A stretch of DNA of 64,000 nt, from NCBI GenBank assembly GCA_041287635.1, contig JBGGNG010000003.1:1342-65341 (forward strand), in the 5' to 3' direction. Positions within the stretch are counted from its first letter, which is position 1; each line of letters begins with the position of its first letter. Both the position numbers and the translations under genes were made by a program. Positions 8,167-60,038 of this stretch are shown here, one piece after another. The notes under the pieces were generated by a model, which had not been told where the DNA came from, ran no database searches, and saw only the letters and a program-made list of their open reading frames with translations. This DNA comes from Actinomycetota bacterium. GTDB lineage: Bacteria > Actinomycetota > UBA4738 > HRBIN12.

Positions 8167-9327
8167 TCACGGTTGGCCCGTGAGGGCCCGGTCGAGGTCC
8201 TCGATCAGGTCGTCGGGGTGCTCGATGCCCACGGAGAGACGCACGAGGTCGCCCGGCACCTCGAGGGGCGACCCGGCCACGCTCGCGTGGGTCATCGGCC
8301 CGGGCACCTCGATCAGCGACTCGACCCCACCGAGCGATTCCGCCAGGAAGAACAGCTCGGTTCGCTGGGCGACGGCGAGGGCGCGTTCGGGGCTCGCCAC
8401 CCGGAACGACACCATGCCGCCGAAATCCGCCATCTGGCGGGTGGCGACCTCGTGTCCGGGATGATCCTCGAGTCCCGGGTAGAACACCCGGGTGACGGCA
8501 GGGCTGGTCCGCAGGTACCCGGCGATCGCCCTGGCCCCGGCGCAGTGGGCTCGCATCCGCACGGCGAGCGTCTTCAGGCCGCGCAGGGCGAGGTAGCTGT
8601 CCATCGGCCCGGGCACGGCTCCCACCGCGTTCACGAGGAAGCCGAGCCGCTCGATCCATTCCTCGTCGCTCGTCACGATCGCGCCGCCGATCAGGTCGGA
8701 GTGGCCACCCACGTACTTCGTCACGCTGTGCACGACGGCATCGGCGCCGAGGGCGAGCGGCCGCTGCAGGGCGGGCGTGGCGAACGTGTTGTCCACCACC
8801 ACGCGGATACCGTGCTCGTGAGCGACCGCGCTGACCGCCCCGATGTCGACGATCTTGAGCAGCGGGTTCGACGGGGTTTCGATCCAGACGAGCTTCGTGG
8901 CAGGCGTCAGCGACGACGAGAGCGCGCCGAGGTCACCGAGATCGACGGTCGAGAACGAGAGCCCCCAGTCGCCCAGCACCTTCGACAACAGTCGGTACGT
9001 CCCCCCGTAGACATCGTCGGCGAGCACCACGTGGTCGCCGGGGCGAAGGGTCAGCAGCAACGTGGTCTCGGCCCCGAGCCCGCTTGAGAACGCGAAGCCT
9101 CGCGCCCCATCCTCGAGCGAGGCGAGGGCTTGCTGGAAAGCCTCCCTCGTGGGGTTCCCCCCGCGCGCGTAGTCCCAGACCTTCGGGGAACCGACCTCGG
9201 GTTGTGCGTACGTCGAGGTCTGGTAGATGGGCACGTTCACCGCGCCGTACGGGGCGTCTGGATCCTGACCCGCATGGATCGCCCTCGTCTCGAATCGACG
9301 TCGATCGTCGGCGTCTTCGTCATGCAT
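8167..9327 (-). CDS. Cys/Met-metabolism PLP enzyme, cystathionine gamma-lyase/gamma-synthase
   Basis: PLP-lysine motif [11 protein letters not shown], and the family is collinear throughout. I trimmed the start to ATG 9327 (MHDEDAD), which has GAGGAGGG 4 nt upstream. The track start at 9366 would overlap the upstream gene. Confidence 0.9.
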
Positions 9328-9338
9328 CGGCACCCTCC

Positions 9339-10178
9339 TCATCGCATCTCCGGCGGCGGCTTCCACCCGCGGGCCGCGAGCTCCTCGAGCGCCTCGGCGC
9401 CCTCACGGGCGCGCTTCCACAGCATGGCCTTGCGCTTCGCATCGTGACCGGGGGCGAACTCCCCGCGGACGAGCCGGTCGCAGGCCGGGTCACCGCATGC
9501 GCAGTAGGTGAACAGGGGATCCGCCGCGCGCGGCGCGGCCGTGCCCGGGCGGTACGGCGTGGCCGGCAGCGCTGCCGACGGCACCACGATCACGCCCTCT
9601 CGCGGATCGCCGGGAGCGAATCGCCTTCCGTCGAGGGCATACAGCCCTGTGAGTGCGGCGAGGGCAGCGTCGACGCGATCGGCGGATCCGAGCTCGTCGG
9701 TGCGCACGCCTTGGGCCCGGAGCACGGCCGTGCGCCAGACGTGCTTGCGCGTCCCCCTCGGGGGGAGGCAGCCCGCCAGCACGACCGCGGTCGCATGTGG
9801 GAAGACCTCGAGGGCCTTCCCCTCGGGGCTGCCGGCCGAATACGTCGGGAACCCGGCCGCCGCCGCCTGCACGAACACGTCGAAGCCGACCTCCATCCAC
9901 GCGAAGAATCGATTGCCCCTGCCGTGCGCCTCGCTGGGGGTGTTGAACGACGAGATGTTGAGGGCCGCCAGCTGGCGCTCGGTGAGTCGAGAGCGCCCCG
10001 ATGGTGCCCAACGCGGCGGGGAGTCGATCGCGACGACGTCGGGCCGCAGGTCGCGGATCACGTGCTCTACGTCACGGACGTGCACGCGTGACGAGACGTG
10101 CAGGGGCACGCGGCGCTCGTCGAGCAGCACGATGTCGAGGCCTTTGCCGACGCCGACGTCGATGCCCAGCGACCGCAC
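9339..10178 (-). CDS. DUF429-like (RNase H-fold) protein with Cys-rich C-terminal tail
   Basis: The real part of track ORF 9339..10757 starts at GTG 10178 (VRSLGIDVGVGKGLDIVLLD...VVAIDSPP). The tail reads YCACGDPACDRLVRGEFAPGHDAKRK. Confidence 0.65.
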   Translation of the reverse strand: MRSLGIDVGVGKGLDIVLLDERRVPLHVSSRVHVRDVEHVIRDLRPDVVAIDSPPRWAPSGRSRLTERQLAALNISSFNTPSEAHGRGNRFFAWMEVGFDVFVQAAAAGFPTYSAGSPEGKALEVFPHATAVVLAGCLPPRGTRKHVWRTAVLRAQGVRTDELGSADRVDAALAALTGLYALDGRRFAPGDPREGVIVVPSAALPATPYRPGTAAPRAADPLFTYCACGDPACDRLVRGEFAPGHDAKRKAMLWKRAREGAEALEELAARGWKPPPEMR

Positions 10179-48716: not shown

Positions 48717-51272
48717 CTACGCCGATGCGAGCAGGTCCCGCACCTCCGAGGCAGACTCGCACCGGAGGGCTCGTGCGGCGATCGCCCGGGCGTCGACGAG
48801 GGTCGTCGACCGGACGGCGTCCTTCACGGTCGCGATCGCGGGCACCGCCATCGAGAGCTCGCGGACGCCGAGCCCGAGGAGGAGCGGGGTCGCGAGCTCG
48901 TCGCCGGCGAGCTCGCCGCAGACGCCCACCCAGCGACCGTGCGCCTCGGCGCCTTCGGCCGTTGCCGCGATCAGGCGCAGCACGGCCGGGTGGAGCGGAT
49001 CGTTGAGCTCGGCGACGTGCTCGTTGCCGCGATCGGCTGCGAGCGTGTACTGGGTCAGGTCGTTGGTGCCGATCGAGAAGAAGTCGGCTCTCGCAGCGAG
49101 GGTGCCGGCCGTCAGCGCGGCGGACGGCACCTCCACCATGATGCCGATCTCGATCGCCGGTGAGAGGCCGATCCCCTCGCGAGCGAGGTCGACGGCTGCG
49201 CGTGCCGCGTCGAGCTCCCCGGTCGTCGCGACCATGGGGAACATGACGCGGACGGGGTGCTCGACGCCCACGCGGAGCAACGCCCGGAGCTGGGCCAGGA
49301 GCAGCTCGGGACGGGCGAGACCGAGCCGGATGCCGCGCACCCCCAGGAACGGATTCGCCTCGTGCGCCTGCGCCAGGGCGGCCACCGGCTTGTCGGCCCC
49401 CGCGTCGAGCGTGCGGACCAGCAGCGGTCGTCCGTCGAGCGCCTCGGCGGCGGCCCGGTAGGCGGCTTCCTGCTCGTGTTCGTCCGGCAGCGTGTCGCGA
49501 TCCATGAAGAGGAACTCGGTCCGGAACAGCCCGATGCCGTCTGCGCCCGCGCCGACCGCGGCCGCGACCTCGGCCGGTCCACCCACATTCGCAGCCACCT
49601 CGATGGCTGTGCCGTCGAGGGTCGTGGCGGGTTCGCCGGCCCTCACCAGCGACGTCGCCAGTCGTGCGGCCCGTCCCCGTCGCTCGGACTCGAACGTCTC
49701 GACGACGTCGGGCGGCGGGTCGACGACGACTTCCCCACGAGCGCCGTCGACGGCGAGCGGCGATCCCTCCGTGAGCGAGAGCACCCGTGGTCCCACGCCC
49801 ACGACCGCCGGGATACCGAGGGCTCGCGCCAGCACGGCGGCGTGCGACGTCGGGCCGCCGTGGGCGGTGACGATGCCAAGGGCCGTCGCCGGATCGAGAC
49901 CCGCCGTGTCGGCAGGGGTCAGGTCGGCGGCGACGAGGATGCCGGGTTCGTCGAGCCGCGGTGCCGGCACGACGAGGCCGAGGATGCGCGCCAGCACCTG
50001 CGTACCGACGCTCCGCAAGTCGATCGCCCGCGCGCGCATGTACTCGTCGTCGAGCACGTCCCAGCCGACAGCCACGGCCTCGACGGCGTCGCGCCACGCG
50101 GCTGCAGCGTTGCGTCCCCGAGCGGCGATCGCCTCGCGCGCCGGCCCGAGCAGGGCCGCGTCGCGCAGGAACAGCAGGTGGGCGTCGAAGATGCGCGCCT
50201 CGTCCTCGCCGGCTCGTTCGGCGACCGCGTTGCGCTGTGCGACGATCGCATCCCCGGTCGCGCGAACGGCCGCCTCGAGTGCGGAGAGCTCCGAGGCGGG
50301 ATCCGCCCCCGGGGTGTCGGGCACGTCGAGTGCTGGCGTGTGGAAGCGCCGCAGCTCGCCGACGGCGACACCGGGCGAGGCGGCGAAGCCCGTCACTACG
50401 GTTCCCTCGACGGCACCGCTCTCCATCGCGTCGACGGGCTGAAGATGCGCCTCGTCCGTCGTCGCGTTCGAGGCTCCGGTCGCTTCGGGTGGCTCGTCGA
50501 ACCGGCGGGCGGCGAGCGCTTCGAGCGCCGCGATCGCCTCGGTCGCGCCGGGCCCTTCCGCCCGCACCTCCACGTCGTGGCCCGCGCGCACGCCGAGCGT
50601 CGCAACGGCGTTCAAGCTGCTCGCGTCGGCCGGACCGGCACCGGTCGTGAGGTTGCGCACGGTGACCACGGCCTCGTACCCGGCCGCGGTCTGCACGAAC
50701 CGGGCCGCGGGCCGCGCGTGAAGCCCGTGAGGGACCTCGACCGGGAACACGGCAACCACGGTCGGGCCCTCAGGCGGCGCGGCGCCGGCCGCACCGTCGG
50801 AGCCTGGCTCGCCTCCCTCGGCCCGGCCGGCCCCCTCGTCGGTCCCCGTCCCGAGGTGAGCGATCTTGCCGGCCAAGCCGGAGCGCGCCTCCGTGGCGAC
50901 CGCATCGAGGGGCATGCCCAGCTTGGCGGTGACCGCCGCCGCGACGGCCCCTTCGACGAGGGGAGCCTCGCAGAGCAGGATGCGCTTTCGCCGCTCCTCG
51001 CCGATCAGATCGACCGCCATCTCGGCCGAGAGCACCGCGCTCCCGAGGTCCATCAACACCAGCACTCCGTCGTCGGACCATGCTCGCTCGATCGCCTGCA
51101 TCACGAGGACGGCGTCGGTCCCGATCGGGTGCTCGGGACCGTCGGGACCATCGACAGCCTCGAGCCCTCCCGCGGTTTCGAGCTTCACCTCGGCCCCGCC
51201 CATCTCGCGCGCGAGCTCGGCGACGCCTTCGGCGATGCGGGCGCTGTGGGAGACGATGACGACGCCGACCAC
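48717..51272 (-). CDS. dhaM: Triple fusion: DhaM (EIIA-Man-like) + HPr + complete Enzyme I (PEP-protein phosphotransferase)
   Basis: The N-terminus MVGVVIVSHSARIAEG is DhaM-type. The HPr domain shows VPHGLHARPAARF. Enzyme I shows GGPTSHAAVLARALGIP, FFSIGTNDLTQY and VCGELAGD. Confidence 0.9.
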   Translation of the reverse strand: MVGVVIVSHSARIAEGVAELAREMGGAEVKLETAGGLEAVDGPDGPEHPIGTDAVLVMQAIERAWSDDGVLVLMDLGSAVLSAEMAVDLIGEERRKRILLCEAPLVEGAVAAAVTAKLGMPLDAVATEARSGLAGKIAHLGTGTDEGAGRAEGGEPGSDGAAGAAPPEGPTVVAVFPVEVPHGLHARPAARFVQTAAGYEAVVTVRNLTTGAGPADASSLNAVATLGVRAGHDVEVRAEGPGATEAIAALEALAARRFDEPPEATGASNATTDEAHLQPVDAMESGAVEGTVVTGFAASPGVAVGELRRFHTPALDVPDTPGADPASELSALEAAVRATGDAIVAQRNAVAERAGEDEARIFDAHLLFLRDAALLGPAREAIAARGRNAAAAWRDAVEAVAVGWDVLDDEYMRARAIDLRSVGTQVLARILGLVVPAPRLDEPGILVAADLTPADTAGLDPATALGIVTAHGGPTSHAAVLARALGIPAVVGVGPRVLSLTEGSPLAVDGARGEVVVDPPPDVVETFESERRGRAARLATSLVRAGEPATTLDGTAIEVAANVGGPAEVAAAVGAGADGIGLFRTEFLFMDRDTLPDEHEQEAAYRAAAEALDGRPLLVRTLDAGADKPVAALAQAHEANPFLGVRGIRLGLARPELLLAQLRALLRVGVEHPVRVMFPMVATTGELDAARAAVDLAREGIGLSPAIEIGIMVEVPSAALTAGTLAARADFFSIGTNDLTQYTLAADRGNEHVAELNDPLHPAVLRLIAATAEGAEAHGRWVGVCGELAGDELATPLLLGLGVRELSMAVPAIATVKDAVRSTTLVDARAIAARALRCESASEVRDLLASA

Positions 51273-51285
51273 GAGCCGCGCTCCC

Positions 51286-51657
51286 TCAGGCCCTCGAGGC
51301 CAGCACGCCGATCAAGATGAAGCCGTAGACGACGGTCACGATGCCGAGAGCGACGAGTCCACGTTCGAGGCGCTGGCGCCACCGTTCATTCAGGCCGAAG
51401 TCGAGCAGCACCGAACGCAGGCCCAGCATCGCGTGCACGGTGACGACGACGAGGAAGACCCCTTCGATCACGAAGATGATCGGTGTGCTGATGTAGTCGA
51501 GCACGTGCTGGTACGTGCGCAAACCGCCGATCTCGTCGACGACGAAATGATGCGCAACCATGTGGATCGTTACGAGGGCGAGGAGCGAGACGCCGGTGAA
51601 CGCGGTCCATCGCCAGCTGCGCGACCGCGTCGAAGGCTCGGGGGCGGTCGCGACCAT
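51286..51657 (-). CDS. Succinate dehydrogenase/fumarate reductase-type small membrane anchor (SdhD-like)
   Basis: 123 aa, RSWRWTAFTGVSLLALVTIHMVAHH, with 3 TM segments. It overlaps the upstream gene by 1 nt (TGATG). Trimmed from track ORF 51286..51879. Confidence 0.65.
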   Translation of the reverse strand: MVATAPEPSTRSRSWRWTAFTGVSLLALVTIHMVAHHFVVDEIGGLRTYQHVLDYISTPIIFVIEGVFLVVVTVHAMLGLRSVLLDFGLNERWRQRLERGLVALGIVTVVYGFILIGVLASRA

Positions 51658-52124
51658 CAGGCTTCCCCTCCGAAGATGTGAAGCGCCGAGTAGATGAGCA
51701 CGATCGCGCCGAACGCCATCAGTGACCAGAACAGCGCCTTCTGCCGGTTGGGAACGAACCCACTCCCGACGAGCGCCACGCGCGTGCCGTTCAGCCCATG
51801 TGCGAGAAGCCCGAACACCAGGAGCACGTCGAGTCCCAGGAACAGCGGCGTCGTCGCGACCTCGAGGAACCCGTTCCATGCGTCCTCACCGCCGAGCAAC
51901 TGCGAAAGGACGGCGAGATGCAGGTAGAGGTAGGCCACGAGCCCGAGCCCGGTGACGCGATTCAGCGAGAACGCCAGGTGTCCGGTGCTGCGGCTGCGGA
52001 GGTCGAACCATGCGATCGGTCCCGGCAGCTTGCGTGAGACGGGCGCGCGTTGACGCCGTCCGCGCAGGATCTCCTCGACCCCCGGGTCGCGTTCGCGATC
52101 GAGCGGCGCTCGCGTCTCGCTCAC
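51657..52124 (-). CDS. Succinate dehydrogenase/fumarate reductase-type cytochrome b subunit (SdhC-like)
   Basis: 155 aa with 3 TM segments and conserved-looking His residues (YLHLAV, LLAHGLNG). 4-nt overlap with the Fe-S subunit gene. Confidence 0.65.
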   Translation of the reverse strand: MSETRAPLDRERDPGVEEILRGRRQRAPVSRKLPGPIAWFDLRSRSTGHLAFSLNRVTGLGLVAYLYLHLAVLSQLLGGEDAWNGFLEVATTPLFLGLDVLLVFGLLAHGLNGTRVALVGSGFVPNRQKALFWSLMAFGAIVLIYSALHIFGGEA

Positions 52125-52876
52125 GTCGCCTCCTCGCCTGCTGCGTGCTCCGGCACCTCGCGGCCCTGTTCACGGCGGCGATGTCGCAGCTCCTTGCGCA
52201 GCGACATGATGCGCTGGGCGGGACGCACATCGCTCGGGCAGGCTTCCGTGCACTCGAACGCGGCGTGGCATCGCCAGGCGCCGGCGTCCTGGTCGGCCCA
52301 ATCGAGCAATGCATCGCGGTCGACGTCGTCGCGAGGTTCCTCGAGCAATCGCTGGGCGTAGGCCAGCGCTGCCGGTCCGACGTAGGAGTCGTCGGTCGCG
52401 GCGACGGGGCAAGCCGAGAGGCATAACCCGCACTCGATACAGTCCTCGTACCGCTCATGTCCGTCGAGGTCGTCGGCGACCGCCGCCTCGGGCAGGAACC
52501 CGCTCTCGCGCACGATCGGGTGCGGATCGGGGTAGTGCGCGACGAACGTCGTCATGTCGACGACCACGTCGAGGAGCACCGGGAGATTCGCGATCGGATC
52601 GACCGTGATCGTGCCCGAGAAGTCGGCGAGCTTCGTCACGCATGCGAGGCGCTCCCGACCATTCACCCGAACGCCGCATGTGCCACATGAGGCGTGGAAG
52701 CACGAGTGGCGCAGTCCGAGCGACGGGTCGCCGTGCAGTTGGATCCACCGGAGGGCCTCGAGCACCGTGGCGTCCTCACCCAACGGCACGTCGAACTCCT
52801 CCATGTGGGGTGTGTCGTCACCGCGTTTGAACCGATGCACCCGGAGCCGGCGGGTGGAGGTGGTCTCGGTCGTCAT
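52121..52876 (-). CDS. SdhB/FrdB-type iron-sulfur subunit (2Fe-2S + 4Fe-4S + 3Fe-4S motifs)
   Basis: SCFHASCGTCGVRVNG..LAC, CIECGLCLSACP and CHAAFECTEACP. Confidence 0.85.
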   Translation of the reverse strand: MTTETTSTRRLRVHRFKRGDDTPHMEEFDVPLGEDATVLEALRWIQLHGDPSLGLRHSCFHASCGTCGVRVNGRERLACVTKLADFSGTITVDPIANLPVLLDVVVDMTTFVAHYPDPHPIVRESGFLPEAAVADDLDGHERYEDCIECGLCLSACPVAATDDSYVGPAALAYAQRLLEEPRDDVDRDALLDWADQDAGAWRCHAAFECTEACPSDVRPAQRIMSLRKELRHRRREQGREVPEHAAGEEAT

Positions 52877-54057
52877 GCCGCGTACGCCGCCGTGTGGGGG
52901 AGCAGCACCGTCTCACGCGTGGCGCACGGGGTGTCGATACCGAGCTTGCGGCAGACGGCGTCGGCACAGACCTCAGCCATGCCCCGCAGCGTCGTGCCCT
53001 TGCCGCCGGTGATCGTCACGAAGCCTTCCACTCGGTCGTCCACCGCGTGATCGATCGTCTTGAAGGTGCGCGACAGCTCGCGGCCCGAGTCGGCATCGTC
53101 GCGCGAACCGATCAAGGGCCGCGCGGCCGACCATGCCGCGCGGAATGGCGCCTGGAGCACGGCCGGCACGAGGATCGAGCCCTCGTCGACCATGCGCTGC
53201 ACGTGGTCGGCCGGCACGCCGAGGTCATCGGGGTCAGAGACGACCCAGGAGCTGGTGCCGATGACCGAGAGCGCTCGCTGCGGCACGATGATGTCGCCGT
53301 CACCCGATGCGTGCAGTCGGTTGATGACCATGTTCGTCAGACGCCCGCGCACCGCGAGCATCACTCCGGGGGAGGGGCGGATCGGCACGTCGACCCCCGC
53401 CATGCGAGCCACCTGCTCCGACCAGGGGCCCGTGGCGTTCACGACGATGTCAGCCCCGATGCGCGTCTGCTTCCCCGTGATCAGGTCGCGGACGTGCGCG
53501 CCCGAGATCACGCCACCACCGAGGTCGAGGTCGAGGACGTCGACCCAGTTCAACAGGTCGGCCCCGTTGGCCCTCGCGGTGGCGAAGAAGCGCAGGGGCA
53601 TACGCATCGCGTCCATCGTCGCATCGGGGACCCGCACGGCCACCTTCAGGTCGGGGTTCAGGTTCGGCTCGAGCCGCAATGCCTCGTCGGGCTTGAGCAC
53701 CTGCGTCGGGATGCCCGTGCGCTCGCACCCCTCGAGGAACGACGGCAGGTAGGCCATGTCCTCGTCGGTGATGCCGACGAACAGACCGTCGTTCTCCTCG
53801 AACGAACCGGGCGCGATGCGGCGCAGGAGCATGTTCTCCTCGATGCACTCGATCGCCGATTCCTCGTCGTTCACGGCGTAGCGGGCGCCGCTGTGCAGCA
53901 ACCCGTGGTGGCGACCGGTGGTGCCCGAGGTGAACTCGCCGCGCTCGACGAGCGTCACGCGTACGCCGCGCAGGGCGAGATCGTGGGCGAGGGCGCCACC
54001 TGTGCCGCCTCCGCCCACGATCAGGACGTGTGGAGCCGTACCCGCACCTTCGCTCAT
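52873..54057 (-). CDS. GlpA-type FAD-dependent glycerol-3-phosphate dehydrogenase, lacking the C-terminal BFD-like domain
   Basis: VLIVGGGGTGGALAHDLALRG, GRHHGLLHSGARYA, VVNATGPW, ITITGGKGTTLRGMAE and AVCRKLG. It is collinear with the GlpA N-terminal ~400 aa as I recall it. Confidence 0.8.
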   Translation of the reverse strand: MSEGAGTAPHVLIVGGGGTGGALAHDLALRGVRVTLVERGEFTSGTTGRHHGLLHSGARYAVNDEESAIECIEENMLLRRIAPGSFEENDGLFVGITDEDMAYLPSFLEGCERTGIPTQVLKPDEALRLEPNLNPDLKVAVRVPDATMDAMRMPLRFFATARANGADLLNWVDVLDLDLGGGVISGAHVRDLITGKQTRIGADIVVNATGPWSEQVARMAGVDVPIRPSPGVMLAVRGRLTNMVINRLHASGDGDIIVPQRALSVIGTSSWVVSDPDDLGVPADHVQRMVDEGSILVPAVLQAPFRAAWSAARPLIGSRDDADSGRELSRTFKTIDHAVDDRVEGFVTITGGKGTTLRGMAEVCADAVCRKLGIDTPCATRETVLLPHTAAYAA

Positions 54058-54090: not shown

Positions 54091-54336
54091 TCAGTCTTCG
54101 TCCTCTTCCTGTCCGCGCGCGAAGTCGCCCCGCTCAGGCGTCACGGGGTGTTCGTCCTCGTCGGCCTGACCTTCCGCGAACGTGCCCTTCTCGACCTCAG
54201 TCGGCTCGCGGTGCTCCTGCTCCTGACCTTCCGCGAAGTCGCCATGGGTATCGGCGTCGGGGTCGTGATCCGCTTGGCCCTCGGCGAAGGATCCCTCGTG
54301 TTCGTCGTGCTCGTCACGTTCCTTCTCGTCGTTCAC
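54091..54336 (-). CDS. 81-aa highly acidic His/Asp/Glu-rich protein with four GxFA(E/R)GQ repeats
   Basis: GTG start 6 nt after GGGAGG, immediately downstream of the glpK stop. The sequence is MNDEKERDEHDEHEGSFAEGQADHDPDADTHGDFAEGQEQEHREPTEVEKGTFAEGQADEDEHPVTPERGDFARGQEEDED. Confidence 0.6.
   Translation of the reverse strand: MNDEKERDEHDEHEGSFAEGQADHDPDADTHGDFAEGQEQEHREPTEVEKGTFAEGQADEDEHPVTPERGDFARGQEEDED
54165..54237 (-). repeat. Intragenic direct repeat (exact 16-mer twice, 57-nt period)
   Basis: CCTGACCTTCCGCGAA occurs at 54165-54180 and again at 54222-54237 (+ strand). It encodes FAEGQ in consecutive 19-aa repeat units. Confidence 0.85.
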
Positions 54337-54351
54337 TGGCGACCTCCCGGC

Positions 54352-55848
54352 TCACTCGACCCAGTCGAACGTACGCGTTACGGCCTTCTTCCACAGCGCA
54401 TATTCCTTCTCGCGCTCGGCCGCATCCATCATGGGTGTCCACTCCTTGTCCTTGCCCCAGTTCCCGCGCAGGTCGTCGATCGTTGCCCAGAAGCCCGTCG
54501 CCAGACCGGCGGCGTACGCGGCGCCGAGGGACGTGGTTTCGGCCACCGTCGGACGGATCACCGGCACGCCGAGAACGTCGGCCTGGGTCTGCATCAGCAG
54601 GTCGTTGTGCACCATGCCGCCGTCGACCTTCAGTGAGGTGAGCGCGACGCCGGAGTCGGCGTTCATCGCGTCGACGACTTCACGGCTCTGCCACGCCGTG
54701 GCTTCGAGCGTGGCTCGCGCGATGTGCCCGGCTGTCACGAAGCGCGTGAGCCCTGCGATCACGCCGCGCGCCTCGCTGCGCCAGTACGGCGCGAAGAGGC
54801 CCGAGAACGCCGGCACGAAGTACACGCCGCCGTTGTCGTCGACGGTCTTCGCGAGGGCCTCGACGTCGGGGGAGGCCTCGATCATCTTCAGGTTGTCGCG
54901 CAGCCACTGCACCAGGGCGCCCGTGATCGCGATCGAGCCTTCGAGCATGTACGCGGCCGGCTGGTCTCCGATCTTGTAGCCCACGCCCGTGATCAGCCCG
55001 TTCTTCGATTGGACCGCGTCCGTGCCCGTGTTCAGCAGCAGGAACGACCCCGTGCCGTAAGTGTTCTTGGCCTCGCCGACGTCGAAGCAGGTCTGGCCGA
55101 ACAGGGCCGCCTGCTGATCACCGAGGTCGCCGGCCACCGGCACGCCGGCGGCCGCACCGACCGCCTCGCCGTAGACCTGGCTCGACGAGCGGATCTCGGG
55201 GAGCATCGAGCGAGGCACGCCGATCGCATTCAGGAGGTCGTCATCCCAGTCGAGGGTTTCGAGGTTCATCAGCATGGTGCGGCTCGCATTGGTCACGTCC
55301 GTGACGTGCTGGCCACCGTCGACGCCGCCCGTGAGGTTCCAGATGCACCATGTGTCGATGTTGCCGAACGCCAACTCGCCCGCATCGGCTCGTGCCTGCG
55401 CCCCCTCGACGTTGTCGAGGATCCACCGGACCTTGGGGCCGGAGAAGTAGGTGGCGATCGGGAGTCCCGTCTTCTCGCGGAAGCGATCCTGGCCGCCGTC
55501 GGCGATCAGCTCGTTACAGAGCTGATCGGTGCGGGTGTCCTGCCACACGAGCGCGTTGTGGATCGCCTGCCCCGTGGAGCGGTCCCACACCACCGTGGTC
55601 TCACGCTGGTTCGTGATACCGATCGCGGCGATGTCGCCCGCCGACAGGCTCGCCTTCTGAAGGGCTCCCGCGATCACATCCTGGCTGCGGGCCCAGATCT
55701 CCGCAGGGTCGTGCTCGACCCACCCCGGCTTGGGGAAGATCTGCTCGTGCTCCTTCTGGTCGACGCCCACGACCTGGCCGCCGTGGTCGAAGATCATGAA
55801 GCGCGTGCTGGTCGTGCCCTGGTCGAGGGCACCGACGTACTCAGCCAT
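54352..55848 (-). CDS. glpK: Glycerol kinase
   Basis: [17 protein letters not shown] and full-length FGGY collinearity. GGAGG SD. Confidence 0.95.
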
Positions 55849-56530
55849 GAGGGGCCTCCTCCGATGGTCGGCCGTCGCCGGCCCATGTGTCGGCGACGGT
55901 GCGCAACAACAGGTAGCTCGAGGTGGCGCCGGGGTCCTGATGCCCAGCGCTTCGTTCGCCGAGGTAGCTCGCTCGGCCCTTCCTTGCCACGAGGGGGATC
56001 GTGGCCGTCATGCCCTCTTCGGCCGCGTCGGCCGAGCGACGGAGCGCCGCGGGCAGATCCGCTCCGTCGGCGACCGCGGCGGCGAAGGCGTCGCGACCGG
56101 GCATCAAGGCGTCGAGCATCGTCTTGTCGCCAGCCTCGGCCTTGCCGCGTGCCTGCACGCCGGAGACGGCCGCTGCGAGGGCGGCAGCCCAATCCTCAGG
56201 CGTGATCTCGTCCTTCCCTGCGGTGGCGACGCCCAGCTGCAGGAACAACGTGCCGTAGAGCGGTCCTCCCGCGCCTCCCACGGTCGACACCAGCGTCATG
56301 CCCACCGTCTTGAACAGCGCCCCGATGTCGCCTGGTGCGGCCCCGTCGAGCTTGCCGAGCACGGCTTGGAATCCCCGGTCCATGTTGATGCCGTGGTCCG
56401 CATCGCCGATCGCGGAGTCCAGCTCCGTGAGGTACGTCTTGTTCTCGGCGATCGTGGCGGTGAAGGTCTTGAGCCATGCGACGACGTCGTCGTACGACAC
56501 GCCTGCGGTGCCGCTCATCTCGGCACCCAC
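55841..56530 (-). CDS. dhaL: Dihydroxyacetone kinase ADP-binding subunit
   Basis: [34 protein letters not shown] and [21 protein letters not shown]. The start is 56530 or Met 56518. It overlaps the glpK start by 8 nt. Confidence 0.9.
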
Positions 56531-56561: not shown

Positions 56562-57563
56562 TCAGACCCCCCACCGCAGACCGGCCGTGTTCACCGGAGC
56601 GTCCCAGAGCTTCGTGAAGTCGTCGCTCAGCTTCAGCAGCGTGATCGAGCATCCGGCCATCTCGAGCGAGGTGATGTACGAACCGATCAGGTTGCGCGAG
56701 ATCGTGATTCCCCGGCCCGACAGGAACTTGTTGAGCTCGTTGAAGACCACGTAGAGCTCGATCAACGGCGTGCCACCCATGCCGTTCACGAACGCCAGCG
56801 CTTGGTCGCCCTTGCGGAACGGAAGGTCGTCGACGATCGCGGTCGCCATCATGTCGACGATCTCCGACGCCTGCTTCATCTTCATGCGCTCGCGCCCCGG
56901 CTCGCCGTGGATGCCCACGCCCATCTCGATCTCGTCGTCGCCGAGCTCGAACGTGGGGGAGCCTGCGGCCGGCACGGTGCATGAGGTGAGCGCCATACCC
57001 ATCGAGCGGCCGTTGGCGTTCACCTCTCGGCAGATGTCGGCGACCTCCTTCAGTGGCCGCTTCTGCTCGGCGGCCGCTCCGGCGATCTTCTCCATCAGCA
57101 CGGTCGTGCCCACGCCGCGACGCCCCGCCGTGTAGAGCGAGTCCTGCACGGCCACATCGTCGTCGACGATCACGGACTCGACGTCGGTGCCTTCGGCACG
57201 ACAGAGCTCCGCCGCCATCTCGAAGTTCATGACGTCGCCGGTGTAGTTCTTCACGATGTGCACGACGCCGGCTCCGCCGTCGACGGCCTTGGTCGCCGCC
57301 TCCATCTGATCAGGGGTGGGCGACGTGAACACCTCGCCAGGACATGCGGCGTCGAGCATGCCCATGCCGACGAAGCCACCATGCATCGGTTCGTGTCCGG
57401 ATCCACCACCCGAGACGAGCGCGACCTTGCCCTGCACGGGCGCGTCGGCCCGCGAGATGACGTACGGATCGTAGGACACCTTCACGAGGTCGGGGTGTGC
57501 CGCCTCGATACCTTGGAGTTCTTCCCGGACGACGTCCGCCGGGTCGTTGATCAACTTCTTCAT
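56562..57563 (-). CDS. dhaK: Dihydroxyacetone kinase dihydroxyacetone-binding subunit
   Basis: MKKLINDP...[18 protein letters not shown] trimmed the start to ATG 57563. Confidence 0.9.
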
Positions 57564-57628: not shown

Positions 57629-58357
57629 CTAGCCGAAGATCGCGTCGGCCGCCAGCGCCCCGAGCACGCCGCCCACGATCGGGCCGACGACCGGGATCCA
57701 CGAGTAAGCCCAGTCGGAGCTCCCCTTGCCGGCGATCGGCAGGATCGCGTGCATGATGCGAGGTCCGAGGTCGCGAGCCGGGTTGATCGCGTAGCCGGTC
57801 GGGCCACCCAACGCCATGCCGATCACGAGGACCAGCAGGCCCACGGGCAGGGCACCGGTCGCGAGGGCGCCGGACAACGCCTCCTCGCCGATCGCGAGCC
57901 CCGAGATCGACAGGATGCCGAAGACCAGCACGAACGTGCCGATGATCTCGGTGATCAAGTTGGCGGGGGTGTTGCGGATCGCCGGACCGGTCGAGAACAC
58001 CGCGAGCTTGAGCCCGGCGTCGTCCGTCTCGCTCCAGTGCGCCAGGTAGGCGAGGTACACGAGGGTGGCGCCGATGAACGCGCCGACGAACTGGCCGGCG
58101 ATCGCGGTCGGCACGTCTTCCCAGGGGAAGGCGTCGATCGACGCGAGGCCGACCGTCACCGCGGGGTTGAGGTGCGCGACGCCCCCCTCGACCGCAAGGC
58201 TACCGAGCACGCCGACGAACACGGCCATCGCCCAGGCCCAGGTGATGACCACCCATCCCGAGTTCTGCGCTTTCGACTTGTTGAGGAGCACACCGGCCAC
58301 GACGCCGTCACCGAGCAAGACGAGCAACGCCGTACCGACCACCTCTCCGAGGAACAT
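57629..58357 (-). CDS. glpF: Glycerol uptake facilitator (MIP/aquaporin family)
   Basis: Two NPA boxes, HLNPAVTVG and [10 protein letters not shown]. The start is set at ATG 58357 (MFLGEVVGT). The longer track ORF adds a non-MIP N-terminus. Confidence 0.85.
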
Positions 58358-58539
58358 CTGAGCGACCACCCCCTCCGTAGCGGGCCCCACCGTCGGGACC
58401 GTGTCGACTCGAGCCAACTCGGTTCGTAACGAGATGTCAATAGTCTTGTGACGCCGAAGCCATCTCGACAAGGCCATCCATCGTTCGGTATCGTCGAACA
58501 GCCACGCACTGGAAGTTGACATGGCCTGGAGGTGGTTCG

Positions 58540-59229
58540 ATGGTTGCGGCGGTGACCGAACGGGCTGACAACGCTCGCGAGAGGGTGTTCGACGTGTACG
58601 ACGCCACCATGATCCGCCGTTGGGTGCGCGGGTCCGCCGACGAGGTCGCGGCGAACCGAGACTTCCTGACCCAACTCGATGCGGCCATCGGAGACGCCGA
58701 CCACGGGATCAACATGGATCGCGGATTCTCGGCCGCCGTGACCGATCTCGACGCTACCTCCGACCTGCCCGCAGGCGAGCTGTTGATCCGGGTCGGGGGC
58801 ACCCTGATCTATCGCGTCGGGGGCGCCGCCGGGCCGCTCTTCGGCACCTGCCTTCGCCGAGCGGGGGAGGCGTTGGGCGACGCCGAGTCGTTCGACGCCG
58901 AGGGCCTGTGGAAGGCGTTGCGATCCGGTCTCGACGGCATCCAGGGGCTCGGCGCGGCGGAGGAAGGCGACAAGACGATCGTCGATGCTTACGCACCCGC
59001 GCTCGTGGCGTTCGAGCGGGAGCTGCGGGGGGGCGGCGACGGGGCCTCGGCGTCACGCAAGGCGGCCGAGGCCGCACGCGAGGGCATGCGTGCGACGGTG
59101 CCGATGCAGGCGCGGAAGGGCCGCGCCTCGTACCTGGGACCGAGGAGCGTGGGGCATCAGGATCCGGGGGCCACCTCGACCTCCTACCTGTTCGCGGCGC
59201 TCGCTCGGTCGTTGGACGGCGGTCGTTGA
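58540..59229 (+). CDS. DAK2-domain protein, DhaL paralog
   Basis: [34 protein letters not shown] and [29 protein letters not shown] lies 4 nt before ATG 58540. Confidence 0.8.
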   Translation: MVAAVTERADNARERVFDVYDATMIRRWVRGSADEVAANRDFLTQLDAAIGDADHGINMDRGFSAAVTDLDATSDLPAGELLIRVGGTLIYRVGGAAGPLFGTCLRRAGEALGDAESFDAEGLWKALRSGLDGIQGLGAAEEGDKTIVDAYAPALVAFERELRGGGDGASASRKAAEAAREGMRATVPMQARKGRASYLGPRSVGHQDPGATSTSYLFAALARSLDGGR

Positions 59230-59252
59230 CCGGGCCGGCACCGCGCAAGGGC

Positions 59253-60038
59253 ATGATCCAGTCCGTCGAGCGAGCTTCCCGGATCCTCAAGGTGCTCGGC
59301 ACGGGCACCTCACGGATGGGCGTCACCGAGATCGCCGATCGGCTCGGGCTCGCCAAGGGAACGGCCTACGGGCTGTTGCGGACCCTCGAGGCCCAGGAGC
59401 TCGTCGAACAGGACCCCGAGACCGACAAGTACCGGCTCGGACCGGCGATGCTGCAGCTCGGCAACGCATTCCTCGACAACCACGAGCTCCGTGCGCGCTC
59501 GTTGCTATGGGCGGACTCGCTCGCCTCGCGAACCGGCGACGCCGTGCGGGTCGGGGTGCTGCACGGGACGAACGTGCTGATCGTGCACCACGTGTTCCGC
59601 CCGGACAACTCGGTGCAGATCCTCGAGGTGGGGGCGTCGATACCGTGGCACGCATGCGCCCTCGGCAAGGCCATCGTCGCCTTCCTCCCCGAGCCGTCGC
59701 GCCGCGCCCTGCTCGGGCTCGAGCTGGCGCCGCTCACCGGCCGGACGGTGACCGACCCGGCCGTCCTCGAGGAGGTGCTCGTCGCGGTCGCCGCGGAGGG
59801 CACCGCACTCGAGGACGAGGAGGCGATCGTCGGGGAAGCGGAGATCGCCGCGCCGGTCTTCGACGACCGTGGTCATTCCGTGGGAGCGATCGGCGTCGTC
59901 GGCCCGGTCGAGCGACTCCTGCCCGAGGGCCGGCAGGCCGCCGCGGTGATCGCGGCGGTGCGCGACACGTCGCGAGGCCTCTCCCGCGACATGGGCGCCG
60001 GACGCGTCGGCGCGCGGAGCGGCGCAACGCGTCGGTGA
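59253..60038 (+). CDS. IclR family transcriptional regulator (GylR-like)
   Basis: MIQSVERASRILKVLG...GVTEIADRLGLAKGTAYGLLRTLE, followed by an IclR effector domain. This is the real part of track ORF 58620..60038. Confidence 0.85.
   Translation: MIQSVERASRILKVLGTGTSRMGVTEIADRLGLAKGTAYGLLRTLEAQELVEQDPETDKYRLGPAMLQLGNAFLDNHELRARSLLWADSLASRTGDAVRVGVLHGTNVLIVHHVFRPDNSVQILEVGASIPWHACALGKAIVAFLPEPSRRALLGLELAPLTGRTVTDPAVLEEVLVAVAAEGTALEDEEAIVGEAEIAAPVFDDRGHSVGAIGVVGPVERLLPEGRQAAAVIAAVRDTSRGLSRDMGAGRVGARSGATRR

Follow-up and report, generated by a model that had tools for sequence, protein, structure and literature searches.

We analysed a 64,000-nucleotide (nt) stretch of an Actinomycetota genome (contig JBGGNG010000003.1), hereafter the window, which has a G+C content of ~70% throughout. 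Four contiguous minus-strand open reading frames (ORFs) at positions 51286-54057 encode a GlpA-like flavoprotein followed by SdhB-, SdhC-, and SdhD-like proteins. We propose that these four genes encode one membrane-bound sn-glycerol-3-phosphate (G3P):menaquinone oxidoreductase of a "GlpA-SdhBCD" type, a reading to which we assign a probability of roughly 0.8. A first-pass annotation, made from the sequence alone, had described the cluster as a possible chimeric G3P:quinone oxidoreductase. This description is supported by synteny across many genomes, natural gene fusions, invariant cofactor ligands, and a glycerol-related gene context.

The four genes are apparent both from the list of ORFs and from the sequence itself. 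The junctions read gcATGAcg (glpA/sdhB), acGTGAgc (sdhB/sdhC), and ccTGATGg (sdhC/sdhD), corresponding to overlaps of 4, 4, and 1 nt, respectively. Thus, the coordinates and the junction letters confirm the overlapping starts and stops noted in the first pass. The mechanically generated ORF list extends the start of the sdhD-like gene upstream to 51879; the real ATG is at 51657. An identical flavoprotein is encoded on six independent metagenome contigs, and the same four genes were called on each of them. An exact copy of the locus lies on the 3.0-Mb contig ERZ25039504:contig_8725.

Subunits and predicted cofactor ligands

The product of the first gene matches the Pfam family DAO (2e-45) and, among the NCBIfam models, the GlpA equivalogs TIGR03377 (431 bits) and PRK11101 (373 bits), with the next-best family far behind at 88 bits. 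The match to TIGR03377 is restricted to profile positions 1-379 of 530. The score of 431 bits is under the trusted cut-off of 553 bits of the GlpA equivalog models, a shortfall that arises because the C-terminal ~150 profile positions are missing. The protein is 43% identical to residues 11-386 of the 542-residue Escherichia coli GlpA and ends ~8 residues later. In a Pfam comparison, E. coli GlpA carries Fer2_BFD at residues 432-484 and E. coli GlpD carries DAO_C; neither domain was detected by the Pfam scan of the window protein. The flavoprotein is therefore placed, from its sequence, in the GlpA clade of DAO-fold G3P dehydrogenases, without the BFD-like [2Fe-2S] domain. The first-pass statement that it is of GlpA type and ends before this domain was thus borne out.

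Three basic residues of the flavoprotein, R59, R313, and K353, align with R54, R317, and K354 of E. coli GlpD, which we take to be G3P contacts in that enzyme. E. coli GlpA has them too, and they are retained by no fewer than 74 of the 76 relatives. Two other GlpD residues considered as G3P contacts were dropped: Tyr259, as residue 259 is Ile in the sequence, and His233, which is not conserved. An extra iron-sulfur (Fe-S) site formed by C71, C111, C369, and C378 of the window protein was also rejected, because C369 and C378 vary when a broader set of truncated homologues is compared. In a search of the PDB, the flavoprotein matched GlpD-type structures only at 1.8e-12 to 7e-24, and no solved GlpA structure of any kind is present in the PDB copy searched.

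Truncated GlpA homologues are abundant. Of the thousands of GlpA homologues scored, each of the best 120 has a length of 359-404 amino acids (aa). An exhaustive search recovered several distinct 50%-identity clusters of this length beside canonical proteins of ~540 aa. Looking up clusters for ten diverse truncated representatives returned mostly metagenome proteins, together with a Nitrososphaerota/Parvarchaeota cluster and a Bacillota cluster. Other members of the GlpA family are larger. Fusions of ~950-1000 aa (P0134, P0141, and others) join DAO, with or without Fer2_BFD, to a GlpB-like FAD_binding_2 domain, and P0151 has a cytidylyltransferase-like domain N-terminal to a canonical GlpA.

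The second gene encodes an iron-sulfur subunit matching Fer2_3 (3e-25) and Fer4_8 (3e-11) in Pfam. It scores 186 bits against the general dhsB model TIGR00384 (cut-off 88) and falls under the cut-offs of all specific (equivalog) SdhB/FrdB models. Its closest PDB chains are E. coli FrdB (1kf6_B, 2.8e-36) and Mycobacterium smegmatis Sdh2 (6lum_B, 8e-36). Cysteines C59, C64, C67, C79, C146, C149, C152, C156, C203, C209, and C213 align with the cluster cysteines of E. coli SdhB/FrdB, and the gene is, judged by these ligands, a full-length SdhB/FrdB with the residues needed for three predicted Fe-S clusters. All 11 are invariant in 77 of 77 related SdhB-like sequences, which have a mean identity of 47%. 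This agrees with the first-pass description of a complete SdhB/FrdB-type subunit with three cluster motifs. We also asked whether the gene might instead be GlpC-like, and rejected this: GlpC models reach 27-44 bits, compared with 186 bits for SdhB/FrdB, and match the ferredoxin motif only.

E. coli SdhA, FrdA, and GlpB used as tblastn queries gave no match anywhere in the window, and the GlpC match falls on the ferredoxin part of the SdhB-like gene. Thus, neither glpB nor glpC follows glpA, and the cluster lacks an SdhA/FrdA flavoprotein, both as previously noted.

The two remaining genes encode small membrane anchors that match the Pfam family Sdh_cyt (2.6e-9 for the SdhC-like and 1e-10 for the SdhD-like protein). 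The SdhD-like protein also has weak matches to the C-terminal halves of the di-haem cytochrome b558/b556 families. When profiles of the two families were searched against solved structures, the closest chains were those of M. smegmatis Sdh2 (SdhC, 6lum_C, 1.7e-20; SdhD, 6lum_D, 6.8e-7). In the SdhC-like protein, H69 (helix I) and H109 (helix II) align with His C47 and His C87 of 6LUM, and in the SdhD-like protein H32 (helix I) and H75 (helix II) align with His D65 and His D107. In the M. smegmatis enzyme, His C87 and His D107 bind haem bP, and His C47 and His D65 bind haem bD (PMC7447783). All four aligned histidines are invariant in 59 of 59 anchor sequences, so the description of the anchors as His-bearing and of SdhC/SdhD type stands. 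Of these histidines, only the pair in helix II is also present in E. coli SdhC and SdhD. On this basis the anchor is predicted to be of type A, with two subunits and two haems, rather than of the single-haem E. coli type, with haem binding deduced from the ligand residues. An additional histidine of the SdhD-like protein, H37 (helix I, five residues past H32), is likewise invariant in 59 of 59 sequences. The aligned residue in M. smegmatis SdhD is Leu, and H37 could be a family-specific residue of the quinone site or of a haem pocket.

Conservation of the arrangement and natural fusions

We then examined the gene context of truncated glpA in other genomes, using an alignment of six truncated GlpA sequences as the query against one genome per GTDB species and analysing the best 80 loci. 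The carriers include Actinomycetota (Actinomycetes metagenome-assembled genomes [MAGs], Solirubrobacterales, a Cellulomonas isolate, and Streptosporangiaceae), Chloroflexota (Anaerolineae, Ardenticatenaceae, Caldilineales, Promineifilum, Thermanaerothrix solaris, Ktedonobacteraceae, and Limnocylindria), and Desulfobacterota (Nitratidesulfovibrio oxamicus, Desulfovibrio, and Desulfobacterales). In three of the 80 loci the contig ends at glpA, making them uninformative. An SdhB-like gene lies directly 3' of truncated glpA in all 77 informative loci, which represent at least four phyla. The idea that the arrangement occurs in no other genome thus fails decisively. SdhC- and SdhD-like genes follow in ~60 of the 80 loci, and sdhA or frdA is found within 7 kb in none of them.

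Gene spacing is conserved as well. Of 75 glpA/sdhB junctions, 27 are overlaps of 4 nt and 64 have a spacing of at most 30 nt, and the same 4-nt overlap occurs between sdhB and sdhC in 29 of 59 loci. The 1-nt overlap between sdhC and sdhD recurs in 16 of 58 loci. Because the arrangement is seen in every informative locus, often with the same overlaps, it is not due to chance. Pairwise identities of GlpA and SdhB are strongly correlated (r = 0.91), a pattern consistent with inheritance of the two proteins as a unit.

In some genomes the two proteins are physically joined. Single ORFs encoding GlpA and SdhB connected by a low-complexity linker were found in Cellulomonas sp. T2.31MG-18 (L052, 6974-9100) and in an Actinomycetes MAG (L054), with further examples in L091 (10001-12067) and L092 (10001-12049). 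Searching with the Cellulomonas fusion recovered ~30 clusters of GlpA-SdhB fusions of 664-752 aa with DAO, Fer2_3, and Fer4 domains, including proteins from Cellulomonas sp. SG140 and P24, Pengzhenrongella phosphoraccumulans, Isoptericola sp., and Actinotalea sp. On the two large fusion contigs that were inspected, SdhC- and SdhD-like genes come next and there is no sdhA within 10 kb. In cultured Cellulomonadaceae, fusion-sdhC-sdhD forms a stand-alone three-gene cassette with no adjacent glpK. A second kind of fusion joins SdhB and SdhC in frame, as 378-aa ORFs in two Chloroflexota loci (L053 and L067). By the classical Rosetta-stone argument, the natural GlpA-SdhB and SdhB-SdhC fusions lend indirect support to a single complex of the unfused subunits, and those of GlpA with SdhB argue for it strongly.

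These results bear on whether the SdhB-, SdhC-, and SdhD-like proteins could be ordinary complex II subunits that are encoded apart from a distant sdhA, with the adjacency to glpA being incidental or regulatory. The window holds no second sdh set, the SdhB-like protein passes the cut-off of the general SdhB/FrdB family, and the anchors resemble genuine mycobacterial Sdh2, all of which would fit such a split complex II. However, that explanation would have to accommodate a glpA-sdhB association that is present in 77 of 77 loci from several phyla, in which stop and start codons overlap and sdhA is never found within 7 kb. It also has to contend with the covalent attachment of the SdhB domain to GlpA in Cellulomonadaceae, and with an SdhB-like protein that scores below every specific SdhB/FrdB equivalog cut-off. 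We therefore consider a split complex II extremely improbable.

The glycerol context is conserved along with the subunits, in line with the earlier suggestion that it supports G3P as the substrate. Directly upstream of glpA and on the same strand, glpK is present in 52 of the 80 loci, and a dhaM-type gene comes after sdhD in 45. The complete order glpF-dhaK-dhaL-glpK-glpA-sdhBCD-dhaM is common to Actinomycetota and Chloroflexota loci. This context is relevant to an alternative in which the flavoprotein acts on another 2-hydroxy or amino compound, making the complex a different substrate:quinone oxidoreductase. In the window, glpK lies two genes upstream in the same string of genes, although the cassette of cultured Cellulomonadaceae is not beside glpK and no nearby glycerol genes were found in some Chloroflexia and Desulfobacterota loci. 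The score under the GlpA trusted cut-off could also be taken to favour another substrate, but it is explained by the missing C-terminal positions; profile positions 1-379 are matched in full, and the next family is far behind. Together with the 43% identity to E. coli GlpA and the conserved basic residues that align with those of GlpD, these observations make a substrate other than G3P very unlikely.

Several loci carry variant output modules. In two Solirubrobacterales loci (L024, about 8223-9800; L027, 8217-9771), the gene after truncated glpA encodes a 530-aa hybrid, and SdhC/D genes are absent. This hybrid combines the N-terminal 2Fe-2S domain of SdhB with a ferredoxin and a CCG domain like that of TfrB, SdhE, or the GlpC C-terminus; the L027 copy has an apparent frameshift. 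Eight loci from Desulfobacterota and other groups (L070-L072, L076, L077, L079, L082, and L085) have truncated glpA and an SdhB-like gene only, with no recognisable SdhC/D or glycerol genes nearby, and the SdhB-like protein of Desulfovibrio has a Pro/Ala/Gln-rich insert. The genome of Desulfobacterium autotrophicum was reported to contain "glpAB" clusters beside a membrane-bound HdrF (PMC2702500), and the Desulfobacterota variant without C/D genes may correspond to these clusters.

In five Chloroflexia/Limnocylindrales loci (L056, L058, L063, L068, and L073), glpA and the SdhB-like gene are followed by an ORF of ~370-395 aa and a PlsY-like acyltransferase, with no anchors. The flavoproteins of these loci have N-terminal extensions, and the PlsY-like neighbour points to a possible connection with lipid G3P metabolism. 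Finally, in L057 (11527-13973) and L080 (8650-10346), glpB- and glpC-like genes lie a few kb downstream of glpA-sdhBCD, showing that both output systems, GlpBC and SdhBCD, can occur in one genome region. Overall, the partners of truncated GlpA comprise SdhBCD, the SdhB-CCG hybrid, SdhB alone, CoxG, and BFD-GlpB-GlpC.

Proposed mechanism and relation to known enzymes

In the mechanism we propose, glycerol would enter via GlpF and be phosphorylated by GlpK to G3P, which would then be oxidized to dihydroxyacetone phosphate (DHAP) at the flavin adenine dinucleotide (FAD) of the GlpA-like subunit. This subunit would dock on the SdhB-type subunit, so that electrons could pass from FAD through [2Fe-2S], [4Fe-4S], and [3Fe-4S] to the SdhC/D anchor. 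The anchor would hold two b haems, each with bis-histidine ligation, in the type A arrangement of actinobacterial Sdh2, and would reduce menaquinone, the acceptor expected in Actinomycetota. We infer that FAD lies within electron-transfer distance of the 2Fe-2S cluster, that two haems are present, that menaquinone is the acceptor, and that the enzyme runs in the direction of G3P oxidation. The potentials of the DHAP/G3P and menaquinone couples are about -190 mV and about -74 mV, respectively. Electron transfer from G3P to menaquinone is thus exergonic by these values, and, unlike in the case of succinate, a di-haem anchor is not required to drive it.

Some observations weigh against assigning the four proteins to one such complex. 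A full-text literature search found no biochemical or structural work on any GlpA-SdhBCD member. An AlphaFold2 model of a natural fusion (P0286, 664 aa), computed with 42 highly similar aligned rows, reached a mean predicted local distance difference test score (pLDDT) of only 62 and a predicted template modelling score (pTM) of 0.51, values too low for an interface to be judged either way. Shared vertical descent alone also predicts the correlation between GlpA and SdhB identities. In principle, the SdhBCD set could be shared with complex II, and our search for sdh genes covered the 64-kb window. In addition, truncated GlpA from Sulfolobus reduces quinone in vitro without a partner (PMC11962113), and the Fe-S/haem path is therefore not strictly needed for G3P:quinone activity.

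The last point could be extended to a model in which GlpA, like GlpD or the Sulfolobus enzyme, itself passes electrons to quinone at the surface of the membrane, with SdhBCD serving mainly as an anchor. Indeed, the truncated GlpA homologues of Sulfolobus acidocaldarius reduce ubiquinone-Q1 without their CoxG anchor (PMC11962113). A pure anchor, however, needs neither three Fe-S clusters nor two haems, and the 11 cysteine and four histidine ligands are invariant even though mean SdhB identity is 47%. Moreover, the variant loci keep the SdhB-like subunit and replace the anchor with a CCG domain or have no C/D genes. Since the anchor varies and the SdhB-like subunit is kept, the Fe-S subunit rather than the anchor is the constant partner. 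A mainly anchoring role for SdhBCD is accordingly quite unlikely, and we favour electron transfer from GlpA through the SdhB-like subunit to the anchor.

The combination of subunits has a precedent in Archaea. Schmerling et al. (2025; Commun Biol, preprint and journal versions; PMC11962113) named a "GlpA-SdhBCD (T. pendens)" type from synteny (their Fig. 9b) in Thermofilum pendens and related Thermofilales, and proposed that the Sdh-like subunits anchor the enzyme to the membrane and carry the electrons released by G3P oxidation. The biochemistry in that work concerns the CoxG-anchored Sulfolobus enzyme, and bacterial glpA is described as "consistently" co-occurring with glpB and glpC (PMC11962113). 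Our full-text search identified it as the one work naming a GlpA-SdhBCD architecture; earlier GlpA phylogeny papers leave operon context aside. Thus, the first-pass claim that no characterized enzyme has these subunits holds, in that none was found in the literature, but the combination itself had already been recorded from synteny (PMC11962113).

The window system is a bacterial member of the kind already proposed from archaeal synteny. New here are the wide bacterial distribution, the fusions, the di-haem assignment, and the set of variant output modules. As in the Thermofilum type, counterparts of SdhB, SdhC, and SdhD come after a flavoprotein of the GlpA clade that lacks the canonical Fe-S domain at its C-terminus. 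In contrast to that type, the system described here is bacterial, spans many phyla, and includes natural fusions and a di-haem anchor signature; the two are likened by gene order, not by sequence. Thermofilum is absent from the best 80 GTDB loci and from the named cluster members of the ten truncated representatives.

In canonical GlpA, electrons leave through a BFD-like [2Fe-2S] domain of the same protein and go on to GlpB and GlpC. The window system has in common with E. coli GlpABC a catalytic core (43% identical), the same predicted reaction, and a predicted Fe-S relay to menaquinone. It differs in lacking the BFD-like [2Fe-2S] domain, GlpB, and, within the window, a full GlpC. Its output would run via an SdhB-fold subunit and haem-bearing SdhC/D, whereas GlpABC uses GlpB and a GlpC with 2x[4Fe-4S] and CCG domains.

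The resemblance to M. smegmatis Sdh2 (PDB 6LUM; PMC7447783) extends to the three SdhB clusters, the closest solved anchors, and the four haem histidines. Unlike Sdh2 and other complex II enzymes, the window system has no SdhA/FrdA within the 64 kb and in its place has a DAO-fold flavoprotein of a different family, with G3P rather than succinate as the predicted substrate. It is like the GlpA-CoxG system of S. acidocaldarius in pairing a truncated GlpA-like subunit with a separately encoded protein for membrane association (PMC11962113). The CoxG-like anchor is without cofactors, in contrast to the Fe-S subunit and predicted haem-bearing anchors found here. GlpD is likewise a DAO-fold FAD enzyme that oxidizes G3P with quinone as the final acceptor, and the aligned basic residues are conserved. 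Unlike the window protein, which is without DAO_C, GlpD has this domain and no partner subunits, a difference that also sets the window protein apart from the GlpD/GlpO group.

A broader proposal seems to us doubtful, if possible. GlpA-SdhBCD might constitute a third major class of bacterial respiratory G3P dehydrogenase that has been overlooked to date, and in many Actinomycetota and Chloroflexota of soils and sediments it might be the predominant one. SdhBCD would then act as a portable quinone-reductase cassette able to take electrons from a flavoprotein whose fold is unrelated to that of SdhA/FrdA. The di-haem anchor might also send electrons to a distal menaquinone site, as in Sdh2, and so couple G3P oxidation to proton-motive force, unlike GlpD and GlpABC.

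Gene neighbourhood and implications

The four genes form part of a co-directional string with very short gaps, glpF-dhaK-dhaL-glpK-orf81-glpA-sdhB-sdhC-sdhD-dhaM (Table 1). The glpK product supplies the G3P substrate. The dhaM-type fusion, with Pfam matches to EIIA-man, PTS-HPr, PEP-utilisers_N, PEP-utilizers, and PEP-utilizers_C, is the phosphoryl donor for DhaKL. Downstream of dhaM are genes for a CDP-alcohol phosphatidyltransferase and an epimerase, and glpX. Upstream of glpF, a divergent region (58516-60038, plus strand) encodes a second DhaL paralogue and an IclR-type regulator. When 45.5-59.5 kb was scanned in a simple way for promoters and terminators, the minus strand gave no prediction, a negative that carries no information at a G+C content of 70%.

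Table 1. Genes of the glycerol-related string in the window, with coordinates and predicted products.
Feature	Coordinates	Strand	Description
glpF	about 57629-58357	-	Glycerol facilitator; MIP Pfam call on identical contigs
dhaK	56562-57563	-	Dihydroxyacetone kinase subunit; Dak1 Pfam call on identical contigs
dhaL	55841-56530	-	Dihydroxyacetone kinase subunit; Dak2 Pfam call on identical contigs
glpK	54352..55848	-	Glycerol kinase; FGGY_N 1e-79, FGGY_C 1e-47
orf81	54091..54336	-	81 aa, between glpK and glpA; gene-called in metagenome contigs
glpA-like	52873..54057	-	394 aa; predicted FAD-dependent G3P dehydrogenase catalytic subunit, DAO fold only
sdhB/frdB-like	52121..52876	-	251 aa; iron-sulfur subunit; predicted [2Fe-2S], [4Fe-4S], [3Fe-4S]; ATGA overlap with glpA
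sdhC-like	51657..52124	-	155-aa membrane anchor; three predicted helices; GTGA overlap with sdhB
sdhD-like	51286..51657	-	123-aa three-helix membrane anchor; TGATG overlap with sdhC
dhaM-type fusion	48717..51272	-	851 aa; EIIA-Man + HPr + Enzyme I; start 13 nt past sdhD

The small gene orf81 encodes a very acidic protein with 32 Asp and Glu residues, six His residues, and four G-x-F-A-E/R-G-Q repeats, and it has no Pfam or NCBIfam match. The gene keeps its position and repeats in ~16 actinomycete loci and is absent from Chloroflexota loci with otherwise the same operon. Its product may have an accessory or assembly role, or may be a peptide that binds metal.

At present, proteins of this kind are labelled "FAD-dependent oxidoreductase" and [quoted passage not shown]. 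Should our reading hold, such labels can cause errors in the counts of both glycerol respiration and complex II when the metabolism of abundant uncultured Actinomycetota and Chloroflexota is reconstructed. Cultured carriers, including Cellulomonas spp. (among them Cellulomonas sp. P24, JAJDFX010000002.1), P. phosphoraccumulans (CP144210.1), T. solaris, and N. oxamicus, give experimental access to the system, and some of them encode a ready-made GlpA-SdhB fusion. If our reading is correct, the picture of bacterial GlpA as always paired with GlpBC would be corrected. The Fe-S/haem/quinone module of complex II would not be bound to SdhA/FrdA, and a DAO-fold dehydrogenase could drive it, which would bear on the evolution of respiratory dehydrogenases through module swapping.

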